Assembly (NCBI GenBank): GCA_050183815.1
Contig: JBFXAY010000006.1
Span: 49,208 to 113,207, forward strand
DNA from: Gemmatimonadales bacterium
GTDB taxonomy: Bacteria; Gemmatimonadota; Gemmatimonadetes; Gemmatimonadales; GWC2-71-9
DNA length: 64,000 nucleotides
Direction of reading: 5' to 3'
The notes beneath the pieces were generated by a model. That model did not search any database. It was not told the origin of the DNA and worked only from the letters and a program-made list of their open reading frames with translations. Numbering within the stretch: position 1 is the first letter of the stretch; every line of letters begins with the position of its first letter. Shown here in pieces: positions 242 through 58,963 of this stretch. The translations under genes were made by a program, and so were the position numbers.

Positions 242-3200
242 CTAGGATTCGGCTGCCCGCGCGGTCGGGGCCCACCGGGTCAGCACCGTCCGGAGCTCCT
301 CGAGTTTGATCGGTTTGGCGAGGTAGTCGTCCATCCCGGCCCGCAGGCAGCGATCCCGGTCGCCCTCCATCGCGTTGGCGGTGAGCGCCACGATCGGGAC
401 CCGGGCCTCTCGCTGGCCGTACGTCCGGATGGCGGCGGTGGCCTCGTAGCCGTCCATCACCGGCATCTGGCAGTCCATCAGGATCAGCTCGAACGGCATC
501 CGCTGCCACATCTCCACGGCTTCCTTGCCGTTGGTCGCCAGGTCGACGTGACATCCCAGCTTCGTCAGCATCTTGGCGGCCACCTTCTGGTTGACCGGGT
601 TATCGTCGACCAGCAGGACCCGCATCGGCGTCAGACCGGCTTCCGGTCCGTCCGCCGACGCCGCGAGACCTTCAGCCGGCGCCAGGTCGCACCGCGGGGC
701 CACCAGCCGCTCGAGGCTCTCGGCGAAGGTGTCGGACCGGAACGGCCGCGAGAAATAGGCGGTGTAGCCTGCGGCGGCCAGCTCGTCGGCGCGACCCCGG
801 GTACCGCCGTCGGTCACGAGGACGAGGATCGGCTCGCCGAGTTCGTTGTTGGAGCGGACCCGCGATCCGAAGTCCACCGAAAATCGTGCGTGGGGATGAT
901 AGTCCACGATGATCAGCCGGTAGGGGTCGCCGCCCGCGGCGGCCCGGTTGAGCAGATCGAAGGCCCGGGTCGGCGAGTCCGTCGCGTCGATCCGCATGCC
1001 CAGTTCCATCGCGAACTCGGCCATCACCAGCCGCTGCATCGGATTCTTGTCGAGGTAGAGCGTCCGGACGCTCTTGAGGCCGGGATTCGACGGCAGCGCC
1101 GACGCGTGCGGATCGAGCGGGAGGCGAATCGTCGCCCAGAAGGTCGACCCGCGGCCGGCCTCGCTGTTGAGTCCGACGGCCCCGCCCATCAGCTCGGCCA
1201 GTTGCTTGGAGATCGCGAGGCCGAGACCGGTCCCGCCGAACCGCCGCGTCGTGGACGCGTCGGCCTGGGAGAACTTCTGGAACAGCCGGGCGTGGTGCTC
1301 GGGCGGAATCCCGATTCCGGTGTCGGTCACGGCAAGGCGGAGCACCGCCTCGCCGCCCGTGAGTTCCTCGCCGGACACCTCGATCAGGACGTGTCCTTCG
1401 GCCGTGAACTTGATCGCGTTGCCGGTGTAGTTGAACAGGATCTGGCGGACCCGGCCCGCGTCGCCGATCACCCGGCGGGGCGTGCCCGGCGCGAACCGGG
1501 CGGCGAGCCGGAGTCCCTTCTCGCTCGCTCGAGATGCGAGGAGGTCGATGACCTCCTCGACCGCGTTCCGGAGATCGAAGGGCAGCGGTTCGAAGCTGAG
1601 CCGCCCCGCTTCGATCTTCGAGAAGTCGAGGATGTCGTTGATGATCGTGAGCAGCGACTCGCCCGAGGAACGTACCGTGGTGGCGAACTCGCGCTGCTCG
1701 GCCGTCAGGTTCGTATCGAGGAGCAGGCCCACCATGCCGATGATGCCGTTCATCGGCGTTCGAATCTCGTGGCTCATCGTGGCGAGAAACTCGCTCTTGG
1801 CCTGGGCCGCGCTCTCGGCGCGTTCCCGCGCCTCCGAGACCGCTTCCATCGAACGGGCCAGTTCCGCCGCCGTTCGCTCGGTGGCGGCCTTGGCGGTTTC
1901 CAGTTCCCGGAGGTAGCCGAGGCGCTCTTCCTCGAGGCGCTTCTGTGCGTGGATGTCGCGCAGCGTTGCGATGCAGGTTGGCACCCCGTCGAGGAAGACC
2001 CGCCGCACGGCCAGCTCCACTTCGACCATGGCGCCGTCCGGTCGGCGGATCAGCGCCTCGACCGGCTCCTCGCGCCGGGCCCACCGATCCACCAGCGGCT
2101 CGGTCGGATCGGCACCGGGGTCGACGACGATGCTGTCGACCCGCGCCCCAACCAGCTGGTCTGCCGGCCGGGCCAGGAGCCGGACGGCCGCTCCATTGGC
2201 CGACTGGATCAGGCCGTCGTGACCGACCACGAGGAGGCCATCGGCGGTCGCGTTGAAGATCTCGCGCTGGCGGGCGGCGGCCGCCGCCAGCTCATCTTGG
2301 GTCCGCCGCTGCTCCGTCACGTCCTGGAGGCTGCCGAGGTGTCCGGTGACCCGGCCCTGGAACCAGCGCGGATGAGTCCGCGCGTGGACCCACCGGACCT
2401 CTGCTGCCTGCGTCACGATCCGGAACGTCCGGTCGAGGGGCTCAGCGCTCGCGATCGCCGCCTTCCAGGCCAGCACGGTCGCTTCCCGGTCCTCCGGGTG
2501 GACGTAGCTCGCGAACCCGAATCCCTGCAGCTGGCGGGCGGCCACACCAAAGAGAGCCGCGCAGGAGTGATTGACGTAGACCGCCATTCCCGCCGCGTCC
2601 GTCGTGAAGAGGCCCACGGGACTCGAGTCCGCGATGGCGGCGGTCTCGGCTTCGGCCGCGTTCAGCCGCGCGGCGGCGCGCCGCTGGTACCCGAATGTGA
2701 GAATCCCGCCCAGGAGGATCACGGCGAGGAGGGAGCCGAATCCGAGGACGATACGCCGCGACCGCGCGACCTCGCGGCCGACCACGGCACGCCGGTACGC
2801 GATGGCGGCGACGCCCACCACCCGGCCGCCGTCGTCGCGGATCGGCTGGAGGCCGAACTCCCGGTTCCCGATCAGGACGACCGGCGCCGGGGTACCGGCC
2901 CAGGCCCGCTCGAGTTCGGCAGCCGGGGCCTCCGCGAGAAGGGTCGAATCGGCGACCGCCGCCCCACCGATCGCCCGACCGGCCCGGTCGAGCAGGTACG
3001 CGGCTTCGAAATGCGTGTCCTCGGTGAGCCACCGATTCTCCCGCTCGACGGCGGCGGCCAGAGCCGAATCGGGGAACGGCGACCCGGCTGCCTCGAAAAG
3101 CCAGGTGGCGAACTGCGGTGCCACGACGGCGACTCGGTCGGCCAACCGGGCAATGGCCAGCTGTTCGGCCCTGTGGGCGGCCAGCCAGGTAACGACGGTG

Positions 3201-3328
3201 AGGAGGAGGAAGGCTCCCGTCGCAAGCAGCCGGCTCAGAACCGGTCTTGCGACCCGGCGGAGGGTAATGGACCCCAGCAGCGCCGACGCCAGCATCAGGA
3301 CCCCGAAGAGCGGGAATTCCCCTGCCAC
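242..3328 (-). CDS. Hybrid sensor histidine kinase / response regulator (membrane sensor, PAS domains, HisKA, HATPase, pseudo-receiver, receiver)
   Basis: 1028-aa ORF. H-box SHEIRTPMNGIIGM, ATPase G-boxes GTGLGLAISK, and a C-terminal receiver (MRVLLVDDNPVNQ...LILMDCQMPVMDGYEAT...ALTANA). Confidence 0.9.
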   Translation of the reverse strand: MAGEFPLFGVLMLASALLGSITLRRVARPVLSRLLATGAFLLLTVVTWLAAHRAEQLAIARLADRVAVVAPQFATWLFEAAGSPFPDSALAAAVERENRWLTEDTHFEAAYLLDRAGRAIGGAAVADSTLLAEAPAAELERAWAGTPAPVVLIGNREFGLQPIRDDGGRVVGVAAIAYRRAVVGREVARSRRIVLGFGSLLAVILLGGILTFGYQRRAAARLNAAEAETAAIADSSPVGLFTTDAAGMAVYVNHSCAALFGVAARQLQGFGFASYVHPEDREATVLAWKAAIASAEPLDRTFRIVTQAAEVRWVHARTHPRWFQGRVTGHLGSLQDVTEQRRTQDELAAAAARQREIFNATADGLLVVGHDGLIQSANGAAVRLLARPADQLVGARVDSIVVDPGADPTEPLVDRWARREEPVEALIRRPDGAMVEVELAVRRVFLDGVPTCIATLRDIHAQKRLEEERLGYLRELETAKAATERTAAELARSMEAVSEARERAESAAQAKSEFLATMSHEIRTPMNGIIGMVGLLLDTNLTAEQREFATTVRSSGESLLTIINDILDFSKIEAGRLSFEPLPFDLRNAVEEVIDLLASRASEKGLRLAARFAPGTPRRVIGDAGRVRQILFNYTGNAIKFTAEGHVLIEVSGEELTGGEAVLRLAVTDTGIGIPPEHHARLFQKFSQADASTTRRFGGTGLGLAISKQLAELMGGAVGLNSEAGRGSTFWATIRLPLDPHASALPSNPGLKSVRTLYLDKNPMQRLVMAEFAMELGMRIDATDSPTRAFDLLNRAAAGGDPYRLIIVDYHPHARFSVDFGSRVRSNNELGEPILVLVTDGGTRGRADELAAAGYTAYFSRPFRSDTFAESLERLVAPRCDLAPAEGLAASADGPEAGLTPMRVLLVDDNPVNQKVAAKMLTKLGCHVDLATNGKEAVEMWQRMPFELILMDCQMPVMDGYEATAAIRTYGQREARVPIVALTANAMEGDRDRCLRAGMDDYLAKPIKLEELRTVLTRWAPTARAAES

Positions 3329-48738: not shown

Positions 48739-48811
48739 CGCCGTTCCATTGCCGGCCGGGCCTCGGTCCCGAGTCGGCGCGGTATATTCCCGCCATGGCG
48801 ATCGAGTCGCG

Positions 48812-49711
48812 ATGACGGACCGGGAAAACCATCTCGATGTCCTGGAGGCGGAGGCGGTTTTCGTCCTGCGGGAAGTGGCGGCCGAGGTGGAACGGGCCGC
48901 CCTGCTGTTTTCGGGGGGCAAGGATTCCACGGTCCTCCTGCACCTGGCCCGGAAGGCGTTCGCGCCCGCGCGGGTTCCGTTCGCCCTTCTGCATGTCGAT
49001 ACCGGACACAACTTCGACGAGGTGATCGCGTTCCGGGACATGGTCGCCCGGGGGCACCGGCTGATGGTTGCGTCGGTGCAGGACTCGATCGATGCCGGCC
49101 GGGTTCGCGAGGAGCGTGGGCCCCGGAGCAGCCGCAACCGGCTCCAGTCGGTCACCCTCCTCGATGCAGTGGCGGAGCACCGGCTGGGCGCCCTGATCGG
49201 CGGCGCACGGCGCGACGAGGACAAGGCCCGGGCCAAGGAGCGGGTGGCGAGCATCCGGGACGAGTTCGGGCAGTGGAATCCCCGCCAGCAGCGGCCGGAA
49301 CTCTGGCAACTCTACAATCTCCGCCATCGGGCCTCGGAGCACCTTCGGATCTTTCCGCTCTCCAACTGGACCGAGCTGGACGTCTGGCGGTATGTGGAAC
49401 GGGAAGGGATCGAGCTGCCGTCGCTCTACTTTGCGCACCGGCGCGAGGTGTTCCGGCGGGACGGGATGTGGTTCGCCGCGATCGCGGCGGTCGAGCGGCT
49501 GCCGGGAGAGGTCGTGGAGACGCGGAGCGTGCGGTTCCGGACCGTCGGGGACGCCACCTGCACCGGCGCGGTCGAATCGGAGGCTGCTACCGTTGCGGCG
49601 GTGATCGCCGAGATCGCCGCCTCGCGCCTGACGGAACGGGGTGCCACCCGGGCCGACGACCGGATCAGCGACGCGGGGATGGAAGACCGGAAGCGCGAGG
49701 GGTACTTCTGA
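48812..49711 (+). CDS. cysD: Sulfate adenylyltransferase subunit 2
   Basis: Start at ATG 48812. PAPS-reductase-fold P-loop FSGGKDS and conserved ...HVDTGHNF..., ...WNPRQQRPELW... blocks. Confidence 0.93.
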   Translation: MTDRENHLDVLEAEAVFVLREVAAEVERAALLFSGGKDSTVLLHLARKAFAPARVPFALLHVDTGHNFDEVIAFRDMVARGHRLMVASVQDSIDAGRVREERGPRSSRNRLQSVTLLDAVAEHRLGALIGGARRDEDKARAKERVASIRDEFGQWNPRQQRPELWQLYNLRHRASEHLRIFPLSNWTELDVWRYVEREGIELPSLYFAHRREVFRRDGMWFAAIAAVERLPGEVVETRSVRFRTVGDATCTGAVESEAATVAAVIAEIAASRLTERGATRADDRISDAGMEDRKREGYF

Positions 49712-50982
49712 TGGACCTCCTCCGCCTCGCCACGGCCGGCTCGGTCGATGACGGCAAGAGCACTCTGATCGGCCGCCTCCTCTTCGACACCCGTCAGATC
49801 CTCGACGACCAGCTCGCGGCGGTCGAACAGAGCAGCCGGGAGCGGGGCTTCGACTACGTCAACCTGGCGCTGCTGACCGACGGTCTCCGGGCCGAGCGGG
49901 AGCAGGGGATCACGATCGACGTCGCGTACCGGTATTTCGCGACGCCGCGGCGGAAGTTCATCATCGCGGATACGCCGGGACACGTGCAGTACACCCGGAA
50001 CATGGTCACCGGCGCCTCGACCGCGGATGTGGCGCTGGTGCTGGTCGATGCGCGGAAGGGACTGGTCGAGCAGTCCCGCCGCCACGCGCTGATCGCGTCG
50101 CTCCTCGGGGTGCGGCATCTCGTGGTCTGCGTCAACAAGATGGATCTGGTGGACTATTCCGCCTCAGTTTTCGACGCGATCCGGGAGGAATTCGGCCGGT
50201 TCGCCGCCCGGCTCGAATTCGGTGACGTCGTCTTTGTCCCGATTGCGGCGCTGCACGGCGACAACGTGGCCGAGAAGTCGGACCGGATGCCGTGGTACGA
50301 GGGACCGAGCCTGCTCTGGCATCTCGAGAACGTGTACATCGCGTCGGACCGGAACCTCATCGATGCCCGGTTCCCGGTGCAGGGCGTGATCCGGCCGATG
50401 ACGGGCGAACACCACGACTATCGGGGCCTCACGGGTCAGGTCGTGGCCGGGGTGTTTCGTCCCGGCGACGAGATCATGGTGCTGCCGGCCCGCCAAGTGA
50501 CCCGGATCGCCGGCATCGACCTGGGAGGGCAGCCGCGCGACGAGGTCCGCGCGCCGGTCTCCGCCACACTGCGGCTGGCGGACGACCTCGACGTCGGCCG
50601 GGGGGATCTGATCTGCCGGCCGAACAACGCCCCGGAGGTGAGTCAGGCCGTTGAAGCGATGGTGTGCTGGTTCAGCGACCGGCCGATGACGGGCGGCGCC
50701 ACGTACACGCTCAAGCACACGACGCGGTCGGCCCGGGCCCGGATCGACACGCTCCGGTACCGGCTCAACGTCAACTCACTCTCGCGGGAGGAAGGCGCCC
50801 CCGAACTCGGTCTCAACGACATCGGCCGGGTGCTGCTCCGCACGGCGACCCCGATCTGCTACGACGAGTATCGCCGCAACCGGGCCACCGGGAGTTTCAT
50901 TCTCATCGACGAGACGACCCTGGACACCGTCGGCGCCGGGATGATCATCGGGCCGGCGGTGGAATCGGCCGGGTCGCCGTAG
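49711..50982 (+). CDS. cysN: Sulfate adenylyltransferase subunit 1 (GTPase), with no fused APS kinase
   Basis: The ATG at 49711 overlaps the cysD stop. G1 GSVDDGKST, G3 DTPGH, G4 NKMD. 423 aa. Confidence 0.93.
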   Translation: MDLLRLATAGSVDDGKSTLIGRLLFDTRQILDDQLAAVEQSSRERGFDYVNLALLTDGLRAEREQGITIDVAYRYFATPRRKFIIADTPGHVQYTRNMVTGASTADVALVLVDARKGLVEQSRRHALIASLLGVRHLVVCVNKMDLVDYSASVFDAIREEFGRFAARLEFGDVVFVPIAALHGDNVAEKSDRMPWYEGPSLLWHLENVYIASDRNLIDARFPVQGVIRPMTGEHHDYRGLTGQVVAGVFRPGDEIMVLPARQVTRIAGIDLGGQPRDEVRAPVSATLRLADDLDVGRGDLICRPNNAPEVSQAVEAMVCWFSDRPMTGGATYTLKHTTRSARARIDTLRYRLNVNSLSREEGAPELGLNDIGRVLLRTATPICYDEYRRNRATGSFILIDETTLDTVGAGMIIGPAVESAGSP

Positions 50983-52345
50983 TAGCGATCTCCGCCTCCG
51001 CCGGGGAGCCCCGACCCGAGCGCCTGAGCCAGCTGGTGTAGAGGGTGTCGCCGATGATCAACCGGCGCACCACAACGGCGAACACCACGGCCAGCATCAG
51101 CGGTAGCAGGAGGCCATAGTCGCGGGTCACCTCGAAGACGAAGAGAATCCCGGTGATCGGCGCGCCGGTAGCCGCCGCCAGCATGGCTCCCATTCCCACC
51201 ACGACGTAGGCGCTGGTTTCGATCGGCAGGTTCGGAAAGCCGATGCCGAAGAGCCCGGCGACGGCGCTCCCGACCAGCGCTCCGGTAAAGAGCGAGGGCG
51301 CAAACACCCCACCGGACCCACCGGTATTGAGCGTGACCGCCGTGGCAATCACCTTGCCGACCGCCAGTACCAGCGCCAGGTACCACGGCAGCATGATGAT
51401 GCTGTCGAGGTGGATCTCGGTGCTGCCGCGGCTCGCGAGGAGGCCGCCCGACGCCGTCACAATGAGCCCGACGATGATGCCGCCCAGCCACGGCCGGAGC
51501 TGGGGGTGGACCTGGCGGCGCCAGCGATGGCGCGCGAGGGTGTCCTCGAGCCGGACGAAGAAGCCGGCGACCAGGCCGGCGGCGATTCCGAGGACCGGGA
51601 AGAAGACGAGGATCTCCCGGTAGAAGGTGTAGCCGGCCGCTACTGGCGTCGGGAATGCGGGGTGCGGGCCAAGAATCGCCGACGAAAAGACGGCTGCCGT
51701 GACGCTGCTGATCACGACCGGCGCGAATGCCACCGTCGAAAACGATTTGAGGATCTCCTCGAGCGCGAAGAACGCACCGGCGAGCGGGGCGTTGAAGGCC
51801 GCCGCGATGCCGGCGGCCGCGCCGGCTCCCACGAGGACCCTGGTCCGGGCGACCCGCAGCCGGAGCCGCTGGGCGAGTTGGGAACCGAGCACCGCCCCGA
51901 GCACCGCAATCGGCGCCTCGGCGCCGGCCGAACCGCCGCCGCTGATCGTGACGGCCGAGGCCACGGTCTTGGCGGCGGCCGGCCGGGCCGGCAACTGGCC
52001 CGAGCGGGAGGTGACGGCGGTGTAGACGTCGGGGATATTGAGGCCGTCGTAGGAATCGCCGAGGCGGCGGACGATCCACGCCGCGAGGGCCACCCCGGCG
52101 CCGGTCAGCAGCGGCCGATAGAACCATTCGCCGCCCCACGCGAGGCGCTTCACGGGCCAGGCGAAGATGCCGGAGTAGGCCAGGGCCAGCAATTTGTAGA
52201 ACAGCGCCGCCGCGAGCGCGCCGAGGATGCCGGTGAGCACCGCCAGGCCGAGGATGACGACGTCTTCTGATGACGGTTCCCGCTGGATCCGGCGGAGGAA
52301 CAGCACCCAGGTGCGGCGGACCTGGTAGGTGATCGTCGGGAGCAC
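50945..52345 (-). CDS. ClC-family voltage-gated chloride channel / Cl-/H+ antiporter
   Basis: 466 aa. Selectivity-filter-like motifs GSAGAEAP (GSGIP-like), GGVFAPS (G(K/R)EGP / GxFxP family blocks), 10+ TM. Confidence 0.85.
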   Translation of the reverse strand: MLPTITYQVRRTWVLFLRRIQREPSSEDVVILGLAVLTGILGALAAALFYKLLALAYSGIFAWPVKRLAWGGEWFYRPLLTGAGVALAAWIVRRLGDSYDGLNIPDVYTAVTSRSGQLPARPAAAKTVASAVTISGGGSAGAEAPIAVLGAVLGSQLAQRLRLRVARTRVLVGAGAAAGIAAAFNAPLAGAFFALEEILKSFSTVAFAPVVISSVTAAVFSSAILGPHPAFPTPVAAGYTFYREILVFFPVLGIAAGLVAGFFVRLEDTLARHRWRRQVHPQLRPWLGGIIVGLIVTASGGLLASRGSTEIHLDSIIMLPWYLALVLAVGKVIATAVTLNTGGSGGVFAPSLFTGALVGSAVAGLFGIGFPNLPIETSAYVVVGMGAMLAAATGAPITGILFVFEVTRDYGLLLPLMLAVVFAVVVRRLIIGDTLYTSWLRRSGRGSPAEAEIATTATRPIPPPAR

Positions 52346-52347
52346 CG

Positions 52348-52890
52348 CTACCGCTCCGACTCGAGTTCGACCCCGAGGCCGTCCGCGATCCGGTTGACGT
52401 ACGCGAAGTAGGCGACGATCACGCAGGCGTCGTGGATGGCCCGGTCGTCGAGGCCCGCGGTCCGGAGCGCGACGATATCGCCCGCGGTGACGCCGGCGGG
52501 CCGCTGCGTGAGCCGCTCAGCGTAGCGCACGAGCGCTTGTTCGGCGGGATCCAGGTCGGCGGCCGCGGCCGCGGCCTCGGTCTGGAGGGCGGCCACCAGG
52601 GCGTCCTGCCGGTCCTTCGGCAGTCCCTCCGCGGCGAGCAGCTGACGGAGACCCGCTCCGTGGTGGTGAATTCAATACCGGCATTCGTTGAGCGCCGACA
52701 CCCGGACCGCGAGAATTTCGCGGGTCCGCCGGGACAACGGGCCGGGCCCGTGCATGGCCGTGCGGTAAAGGTCGAAGTGGTTGCGCATCGCCGCCGGGTG
52801 AATGGCGTGGATCTGGATGATGTTGTCCGGATCGGGCACCCGGGCTTCGGGGTCCAGCTCGGAATCGGGGCGATAACGGATGAAAGCCAT
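52348..52890 (-). CDS. AhpD/carboxymuconolactone-decarboxylase-family peroxidase-related selenoprotein, with in-frame TGA 52674-52672 read as Sec (CRYU motif)
   Basis: Two same-frame track ORFs (52672-52890 and 52348-52596) join through a single TGA: ...ILAVRVSALNECRY-U-IHHHGAGLRQLLAAEGLPKDRQDALVAALQTE... The TGA sits at the second Cys of the family N.C.YC...H motif. A hairpin lies 11 nt downstream. Confidence 0.8.
52645..52661 (-). promoter_or_regulatory. SECIS-like hairpin downstream of the AhpD-like TGA
   Basis: Minus-strand RNA ACGGAG-CGGGU-CUCCGU: a 6-bp stem with a 5-nt G/U loop, starting 11 nt after the UGA. Confidence 0.5.
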
Positions 52891-52980: not shown

Positions 52981-53502
52981 ATGACCAGACTGCTGGCGCT
53001 CGTGGTACTTGGCGCGGTGCTTCCGGCGACCGTGGCAGCGCAAGGAGCCGAGGCGCGCCTTCGGGAACTCAAGATCACCCTGCCCGAGGTCGCTCCGCCG
53101 CTGGCCAATTACCTGCCGGCCGTCCGGTCCGGAAACCTTGTGTTCCTGGCGGGGCACGGCCCGGCGCAGCCCTGGGGGCCGACGGCCACGGGAAAGGTCG
53201 GCCGCGACCTCACGGTGGAGCAGGGCTACGAGGCGGCGCGCAACGTCGGGATCAACTTGCTGGCCTCGCTCAAGGCCGAGGTCGGCAGCCTCGACAAGGT
53301 CAGGCGGATCGTGAAGGTGCTGGGGATGGTCAACTCCGCCGAGGGTTTCGGCCAGCAGCCCGAGGTGATCAACGGGTTTTCCGATCTCATGGTGTCGGTC
53401 TTCGGGCCGCGCGGCAAACACGCCCGCTCGGCCGTGGGCATGGCGGCGCTGCCGCGCGGCCTGTCGGTCGAGATCGAGATGATCGTCGAAGTCGAGCCGT
53501 AG
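52981..53502 (+). CDS. RidA/YjgF/L-PSP family protein with an N-terminal signal peptide
   Basis: Start at ATG 52981 (MTRLLALVVLGAVLPATVAAQG). C-terminal RSAVGMAALPRGLSVEIEMIVEV signature. Confidence 0.85.
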   Translation: MTRLLALVVLGAVLPATVAAQGAEARLRELKITLPEVAPPLANYLPAVRSGNLVFLAGHGPAQPWGPTATGKVGRDLTVEQGYEAARNVGINLLASLKAEVGSLDKVRRIVKVLGMVNSAEGFGQQPEVINGFSDLMVSVFGPRGKHARSAVGMAALPRGLSVEIEMIVEVEP

Positions 53503-58615: not shown

Positions 58616-58963
58616 CTACTTCACGAACTTCTCGTAGGTCTCCTGGTCGAACCCCACCAGCAGCGTCCGGCCCTTTCGTACGGTCGGCGCCCGGAGGTTT
58701 CCGCTCGGTCCGACGAGGACCGCGGCCAGGTCTGCCCGGGAAGGCTGATCCCGCTTGAGATCGAAGTGAAGCACCTTCCGGCCCTTGGTGACGTACAGGT
58801 GGTCGATGCCCTCGAGCACGGCGAGGGCCTGCTTGCCGGGAATGGTCCGCTTCTTCGCGTCCACCGTTTCGGTGACGGTGGCGTCATGCTGCGCAAGGAA
58901 CCCTTGCGTACGTTTGCAGCTGATTCACCCGGGGCGCAGGTACGCCCAATCGACTTTCGGCAT
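58616..58963 (-). CDS. ArsC/Spx/YffB-fold selenoprotein, with in-frame TGA 58927-58925 read as Sec (UISC motif)
   Basis: From ATG 58963: MPKVDWAYLRPG-U-ISCKRTQGFLAQHDATVTETVDAKKRTIPGK...LRAPTVRKGRTLLVGFDQETYEKFVK. The track ORF (58616-58864) is only the C-terminal part, in the same frame. The TGA aligns with the first Cys of the fold's N-terminal CxxC/CxxS. A hairpin lies 17 nt downstream. Confidence 0.78.
58892..58908 (-). promoter_or_regulatory. SECIS-like hairpin downstream of the ArsC-like TGA
   Basis: Minus-strand RNA CGCAAGG-GUU-CCUUGCG (or a 6-bp stem with a GGUUC loop), flanked by an outer GCUG/CAGC helix. Confidence 0.5.

Follow-up and report, generated by a model that had tools for sequence, protein, structure and literature searches.

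We analysed a 64,000-nt stretch of DNA from a Gemmatimonadales bacterium (hereafter the window), which carries on its minus strand, at 52890-52348, a gene for an AhpD-like protein interrupted by an in-frame stop codon. Read from the ATG at 52890 to the TAG at 52350-52348, the frame comprises 180 sense codons, and its single internal stop is the TGA at 52674-52672, codon 73. A mechanical list of open reading frames breaks the gene in two, into a 72-aa ORF (52672-52890) whose C-terminus is ...SALNECRY and an 82-aa ORF in the same frame that starts at the GTG at 52596. The 75 nt that separate the TGA from this GTG (25 codons, IHHHGAGLRQLLAAEGLPKDRQDAL) are free of stops, and the joined reading is ...RVSALNEC-R-Y-[TGA]-I-H-H-H-G-A-G-L-R... 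A preliminary description of the locus had proposed just such a split gene, with ORFs of 72 and 82 aa, a stop-free gap of 75 nt, and NECRY followed by the TGA and a His-rich segment (N-E-C-R-Y-[TGA]-I-H-H-H); reading the frame verified each coordinate as well as the joined sequence.

The gene is followed closely on the same strand by a 466-aa ORF for a ClC-family chloride channel/antiporter (50945-52345), whose GTG at 52345 starts 2 nt after the TAG. Pfam Voltage_CLC is recorded for the ClC protein on an identical contig in the Logan assemblies, and NCBIfam ClcA/ClcB-like matches to the ORF fall below cutoff. On the other side, a RidA/YjgF-family gene (52981-53502, plus strand) is divergent from the AhpD-like gene.

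Coding character does not change at the TGA. High third-position GC is a coding signal in a window of 69.5% GC, and GC3 stays high through the stop (0.81 before it, 0.90 after it). When U is replaced by C, residues 23-175 of the 180-residue product match the NCBIfam profile TIGR01926 ('peroxidase-related enzyme') with 111.8 bits, above its cutoff of 81.8, and this alignment runs continuously across the TGA. The same translation also matched Pfam CMD (PF02627). Five solved AhpD-like structures, 3c1l, 6k40 (DR1765), 2oyo, 2pfx and 2prr, were found with E values from 1e-22 to 1e-13, and the fold assignment is based on these sequence matches. In all five, the second Cys of the N-x-C-x-Y-C motif is found opposite the TGA. 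The equivalog TIGR00777, which represents AhpD of the M. tuberculosis type, scored 20.6 bits against a cutoff of 192 (E = 3e-4), and the PA0269 structure 2o4d gave only a remote match (E = 1.6e-3). The preliminary description had assigned the product to the AhpD/CMD 'peroxidase-related' family, to be checked by aligning the 180-aa product (U to C) with family models, and had placed the TGA at the second Cys of a CxxC. The TIGR01926 score and the CMD match bear out the former, and the alignments with Cys homologues and with the solved structures uphold the latter.

A pair of separate small genes, one for a 72-aa protein ending ...NECRY and one for an independent protein from the GTG at 52596, is what both the mechanical ORF list and public gene calls display. 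We consider the likelihood of such a pair practically negligible, since the alignments to one profile and to five solved structures pass over the TGA without a break, and since the 25 codons between the TGA and that GTG include the invariant H76, H77, G80 and L81. Moreover, the first start after the TGA varies in relatives and is often the very next codon, giving fragments of ~104 aa. The start of the joined frame lies exactly 72 codons before the TGA in 81/81 family members (the window gene plus 80 genome loci).

The TGA itself is widely conserved. It occupies the position of codon 73 in 80/80 of the best related loci from one-genome-per-species contigs, which span 12 named phylum-level groups: Gemmatimonadota (27 loci), Acidobacteriota (25), Planctomycetota (7), Chloroflexota (5), Neomarinimicrobiota (4), Eisenbacteria (2), and one each from Calditrichaceae, Ignavibacteria, Zixiibacteriota, SAR324, Synergistaceae and Gammaproteobacteria, with 4 loci unclassified. 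In a metagenome scan that was seeded with Cys forms, the same codon was TGA in 27 loci and TGC or TGT in 51. As read from these alignments, this pairing of Sec and Cys at codon 73 is the pattern expected of real selenoproteins. The preliminary description had suggested looking for Cys codons here in relatives, and had noted that orthologues ending consistently at NECRY would speak against a selenoprotein; the orthologues instead either keep the TGA or carry TGC/TGT. Public protein databases reflect the split in their own way: of the 120 best-matching database entries, 96 begin 1-2 residues past the TGA column and are fragments of ~104 aa, while the column itself holds W in 8, Cys in 9 and Arg in 1 (P0014). 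The W in these eight homologues presumably results from gene calling under a code in which TGA is Trp.

We also considered that the gene might be a pseudogene, or that the TGA might be a sequencing or assembly error replacing TGC or TGT, in which case no full-length protein would be made. Gene callers do split the gene into the 72-aa and 82-aa ORFs, Cys homologues exist, and one database homologue has Arg. However, all 80 genome loci and 27 metagenome loci share the TGA, and the protein sequence is conserved on either side of it; therefore it is not an error; a miscall confined to 52672-52674, which the preliminary description had raised as a concern, is answered by the same finding. The independent Logan assembly SRR27751815 has the same 72-aa and 82-aa split, next to a ClC protein identical to that of the window. 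High coding GC3 persists past the TGA, and a positional hairpin, described below, accompanies TGA forms and not Cys forms. An error or a pseudogene is thus extremely improbable, and conservation has effectively refuted it already.

The residues around the TGA form a recognisable AhpD active site. Codons 58-77 (52660-52719, minus strand) correspond to the catalytic helix-turn-helix and show the AhpD proton-relay pattern E58-x11-C70-x-Y72-U73-x3-H77. The proton-relay residues are E36, C48, Y50, C51 and H55 in PA0269 and E118, C130, H132, C133 and H137 in M. tuberculosis AhpD (PMC3141380), and the spacing of E58, C70, Y72, U73 and H77 is identical to that in both proteins. Across the 81 sequences R57, E58, S65, N68, C70, Y72, the TGA, H76, H77 and L81 are invariant.

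Next to selenocysteine, the other way of obtaining one protein from this frame would be for the UGA to be read through as Trp, Gly or Cys, by a reassigned code or by near-cognate suppression. The eight database homologues with W would fit such read-through, as would the lack of Sec machinery in the window, where ARAGORN detected no tRNA-Sec in the 64 kb and no SelA-, SelB- or SelD-like ORF was recognised among the ORF translations. Yet TGA serves as the ordinary stop in 55/81 family genes and in most window ORFs, which excludes a reassigned genetic code. The affected site is the redox-active Cys, at which exchange of Sec and Cys is the known pattern (PMC1088965), selection acts on a SelB-type hairpin spaced from the UGA as in fdhF, and the window contains another gene that belongs to a recognised selenoprotein family. 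Read-through with an amino acid other than Sec is, on this evidence, very improbable.

The second gene, at 58963-58616 on the minus strand and ~6 kb away, is split in the same manner and reads M-P-K-V-D-W-A-Y-L-R-P-G-[TGA 58927-58925]-I-S-C-K... Its joined product scored 135.9 bits against a cutoff of 85 with NF041106, 'ArsC family (seleno)protein', and its UGA is followed by the hairpin GCAAGG-GUU-CCUUGC (z = -2.0). When the 64-kb window was scanned for TGA-split genes, the AhpD-like gene and this ArsC-like gene were the only credible candidates. The preliminary description had counted the AhpD-like gene as the second selenoprotein of the window, and the ArsC-family gene was indeed found as well. 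Because two independent members of curated selenoprotein families occur in one window, the organism very likely decodes Sec.

The sole ARAGORN call in the window, a 96-nt 'tRNA-Glu' within a histidine-kinase ORF, is probably a false positive. The EF-Tu-like ORF beside the ClC gene is CysN. The family-library profile scan covered six ORFs near the selenoprotein gene.

Downstream of the UGA we located the putative SECIS hairpin ACGGAG-CGGGU-CUCCGU (52661-52645, minus strand), with stems at 52661-52656 and 52650-52645 and the loop CGGGU at 52655-52651. It occupies nt 14-30 counted from the U of the UGA and begins 11 nt after the codon, exactly as the preliminary description had it. Within it, the sequence GGUCU (52653-52649, nt 22-26) contributes G23, a candidate SelB contact, to the apical loop. 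This GGUCU falls within the coding sequence for the catalytic helix.

The hairpin is the minimum-energy fold of the local 35 nt (-7.3 kcal/mol), but 73/200 shuffles of these 35 nt fold as well or better (z = -0.14). A test of 71 nt was not significant either (z = +1.59), nor was local folding energy compared with synonymous-codon resamples, for the window gene or for the genome set; the GC-rich codons of HHHGAGLR fold about equally well in alternative ways. RNAalifold returned no consensus structure for the 81-sequence alignment. In Rfam searches nothing in the 64 kb passed the gathering thresholds, and the hits obtained near the site with E values of up to 10 did not exceed chance. In a single sequence the hairpin is thus indistinguishable from chance, and the support for a SECIS is comparative and position-specific.

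That support comes from several features of the family. In the gapless alignment of 81 sequences, the six pairs joining nt 14-19 with nt 25-30 are paired in 92% of cells; shifting the partners by 1-3 nt lowers this to 28-51%. Few changes in the main register are truly compensatory (one pair, three cells). G23, C25 and U26 are invariant, while nt 24 is variable (T/G/A/C) and a bulged U17 is not conserved. Codon choice is strongly biased in the stems: Gly at U+5 is encoded by GGA or GGG in 72/72 cases (background 40%), Ala at U+6 by GCG in 65/68 (background 38%), Leu at U+8 by CTC in 72/81 (background 36%) and Arg at U+9 by CGT in 65/80 (background 9%). In the loop, by contrast, the Gly codon is unconstrained at its third base (T 37, G 22, A 13, C 8). 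Divergent Sec forms rebuild their stems around the GGUCU core, as in CCGGCGC-GGUCU-GCGCCGG, AGCCGC-GGUCU-GCGGCU and GCGGAG-GGU-CUCCGC. When we scored sequences for a hairpin of at least 5 bp with a loop containing nt 22-23, it occurred in 95% of the Sec forms from genomes and 93% of those from metagenomes, as against 20% of the Cys forms and ~30% of resamples in which the same proteins were given synonymous codons. These comparisons indicate that selection maintains the hairpin in Sec forms but not in Cys forms. SECIS prediction, which the preliminary description had suggested as a check, was positive in the comparative positional test, and negative for the single sequence, which folds no better than shuffles, and for RNAalifold.

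The preliminary description had further proposed an operon with the ClC gene and called it an unusual functional pairing. The 2-nt adjacency of TAG and GTG stands, and co-transcription of the two genes in this genome is plausible: they lie on the same strand, an SD-like GGAG is found ~9 nt before the ClC GTG within the end of the upstream gene, and the TAG/GTG junction contains no terminator or promoter motif. The pairing, on the other hand, is absent from all 160 related loci. A search reaching 4 kb to either side of the 80 genome loci, and 1.5 kb at 80 metagenome loci, found no ClC homologue, tblastn of ClC, RidA, helicase, CysD, CysN and the ArsC-like protein against the same loci gave no relevant match, and all-against-all clustering of flanking ORFs detected no neighbour common to more than 10/80 loci. 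The adjacency therefore carries no evidence of functional pairing. From these surveys ClC is a neighbour specific to this genome, not a conserved partner, and the AhpD-like selenoprotein family behaves as a stand-alone gene.

The two genes could nevertheless form a functional system, for example for redox control of anion transport or for chloride-linked oxidant defence. The likely co-transcription is in favour of this, but with no ClC near any of the related loci and no widely shared neighbour we regard it as very unlikely. A narrower version, in which the AhpD-like selenoprotein was recruited into a translationally coupled ClC unit in this lineage, strikes us as very unlikely too; if true, it would link selenol redox chemistry to anion transport, through redox gating or defence against chlorine-derived oxidants. 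The ClC adjacency is a residual oddity that comparison does not support. As to other partners, no peroxiredoxin gene is adjacent in the window, and the flanking ORFs of the 80 loci include no conserved gene that would hint at a substrate.

Altogether, we hold with high confidence that 52890-52348 is one intact gene for a 180-residue AhpD-like selenoprotein (TIGR01926, CMD superfamily), in which the UGA at codon 73 would be decoded as Sec with the hairpin as its SECIS, and which would have a redox oxidoreductase role. Direct support comes from a single gene spanning the TGA, from retention of the TGA as opposed to Cys codons, from a position-specific hairpin in TGA forms, and from conservation of the active site. 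Sec insertion, the redox chemistry, and the physiological substrate and reductant are what we infer from these. In this model the in-CDS hairpin would bring SelB with its Sec-tRNA(Sec) to a ribosome at the UGA, with G22-G23-U24 in the apical loop of a short bacterial SECIS. U73 would replace the second Cys of the CxxC, the equivalent of Cys133 of M. tuberculosis AhpD, and the protein would most likely cycle between a selenol/thiol state and a C70-U73 selenenyl-sulfide. A selenol/thiol oxidoreductase of this type is most likely, being the best-supported reading of the analysis. Its role may lie in defence against oxidative stress, as a disulfide/hydroperoxide oxidoreductase that either reduces a peroxiredoxin-type partner or itself reduces peroxides as a weak peroxidase. 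Among characterised homologues DR1765 (PDB 6k40) is the closest; according to PMC8945050, citing Zhao et al. 2020, cells that lose it become sensitive to H2O2, and the cysteines of its CxxC are important for complementation. We found no biochemical study of any Sec-containing member in the AhpD-like literature cited here.

The main value of these results lies in annotation, as automatic gene calling cuts one intact selenoprotein gene into pieces of 72 and 82 aa. The same mis-annotation is systematic in public data, where 96/120 best database hits are C-terminal fragments past the Sec codon and 8 have a spurious Trp. The results also mark the source organism as a very likely user of Sec, with at least two predicted selenoproteins in 64 kb, and show a Sec clade that retains the Sec codon in all 80 best species genomes. 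They leave existing knowledge of selenoproteins unchanged.

We compared the gene and its hairpin with known systems, starting with the SECIS of E. coli fdhF (read from NC_000913), whose upper stem-loop spans nt 15-31 and in which G23/U24 and the bulged U17 are SelB determinants (PMC8659212). GGUCU lies at nt 22-26 in both elements, with G23 in the apical loop, and to this extent the 'fdhF-like geometry' of the preliminary description is accurate. In other respects the two differ: the element described here has a pentaloop, CGGGU, closed by G19-C25, whereas fdhF has the tetraloop GGUC, and it is shorter and weaker, with a variable nt 24 in place of U24 and without the bulged U17 or a conserved lower stem.

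As a protein, the product resembles M. tuberculosis AhpD and PA0269 in the E-x11-C-x-(H/Y)-C-x3-H spacing, but M. tuberculosis ahpD is paired with ahpC and its product reduced by lipoamide, whereas no ahpC or lipoamide-enzyme gene is linked to the gene in the window. DR1765 (6k40), 3c1l, 2oyo, 2pfx and 2prr match over the full length and share the N-x-C-x-Y-C-x-x-H-[GA] helix. These solved forms have Cys at the second position and require no SECIS, and the residues that follow differ as well, the Sec clade having H-H-G-A-G-L-R where the Cys forms have others (e.g. A-V-S-H-G-A-A-L-R).

The closest counterpart is the AhpD-like CxxU family. Its selenoproteins (COG2128) were described in 2005 from the Sargasso Sea, with 27 sequences for which SECIS elements were predicted (PMC1088965); 'AhpD-like 1', with 299 sequences, later ranked fourth in abundance among the prokaryotic selenoprotein families of the GOS data (PMC2398784), and a 2026 review of prokaryotic selenoproteomes lists an 'AhpD-like protein, TIGR01926, CxxU' (PMC13188914). 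The published surveys drew mostly on marine metagenomes (Zhang, Fomenko and Gladyshev 2005; Zhang and Gladyshev 2008). The gene described here shares with this family the TIGR01926 profile, a single Sec per protein at the second Cys, a downstream SECIS with a G in its loop, and the common occurrence of Cys homologues. We see no difference in kind, this copy being distinguished by the abutting ClC gene and its high-GC genome. Judged by its sequence, the gene displays every testable defining feature of the AhpD-like CxxU family and would thus encode a selenoprotein of a known kind.

The AhpD-like selenoprotein family is systematically mis-annotated in public data. Among the 120 best database matches to the product of the window's AhpD-like gene, 96 are C-terminal fragments of about 104 aa that start directly after the Sec codon, and these carry the names 'hypothetical protein' or 'peroxidase'. 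A further eight are full-length entries with Trp at the Sec position, the result of TGA having been read as Trp. NCBI MAG records occur among the mis-annotated entries (e.g. P0045, P0065 and P0079). In one close homologue, the 165-aa ENA protein P0014 encoded on a 1-Mb contig, the Sec position is occupied by Arg (…NDCFY-R-INHHGAG…). This Arg would be consistent with a TGA to CGA change, and may reflect either an error or a variant that is inactive.

We found a variant SECIS register, at nt 13–33 after the TGA, in four loci from Planctomycetota/Pirellulaceae (L061, L065, L066 and L075) and three from metagenomes (L124, L125 and L146). These loci have Arg (CGC) in place of an Ala codon, and the rebuilt stem reads GCCGC-GGUCU-GCGGC, the entire loop being GGUCU. 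The protein sequence following Sec (H-x-R-G-L-R) is altered jointly with the RNA stem.

In the window, genes for the sulfate adenylyltransferase subunits CysD and CysN (48749–50982, plus strand; both well above NCBIfam cutoffs) are convergent to the ClC gene and lie about 1.4 kb from the AhpD-like gene. ATP sulfurylase also activates selenate, so finding them beside this gene in an organism that uses Sec is curious; they are not present at the related AhpD-like selenoprotein loci. On the other side, a RidA/YjgF-family gene (52981–53502, plus strand; Pfam YjgF_endoribonc on the Logan contig identical to this region) is divergent from the AhpD-like gene across a 90-bp intergenic region. Its product has an apparent N-terminal signal-like segment (MTRLLALVVLGAVLPATVAAQG), and its adjacency to the AhpD-like family is not conserved elsewhere.

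ARAGORN called a 96-nt 'tRNA-Glu (ctc)' at 1474–1569 on the minus strand. The called stretch falls inside a gene for a 1028-aa hybrid histidine kinase (245–3328, minus strand), where it encodes the peptide ...LSFEPLPFDLRNAVEEVIDLLASRASEKGLRLAA...; the call is not a tRNA-Sec and almost certainly represents a false positive.

A second selenoprotein gene, of the ArsC family, lies at 58616–58963 on the minus strand, with an in-frame TGA at 58927–58925, and is presumably the 'first' selenoprotein implied by the preliminary description. It reads MPKVDWAYLRPG-[TGA]-ISCKRTQ..., giving a UxxC motif. GCAAGG-GUU-CCUUGC, a hairpin that also has a lower stem, follows the UGA (–14.2 kcal/mol, z = –2.0). The joined product matches NF041106, 'ArsC family (seleno)protein', with 135.9 bits against a cutoff of 85.
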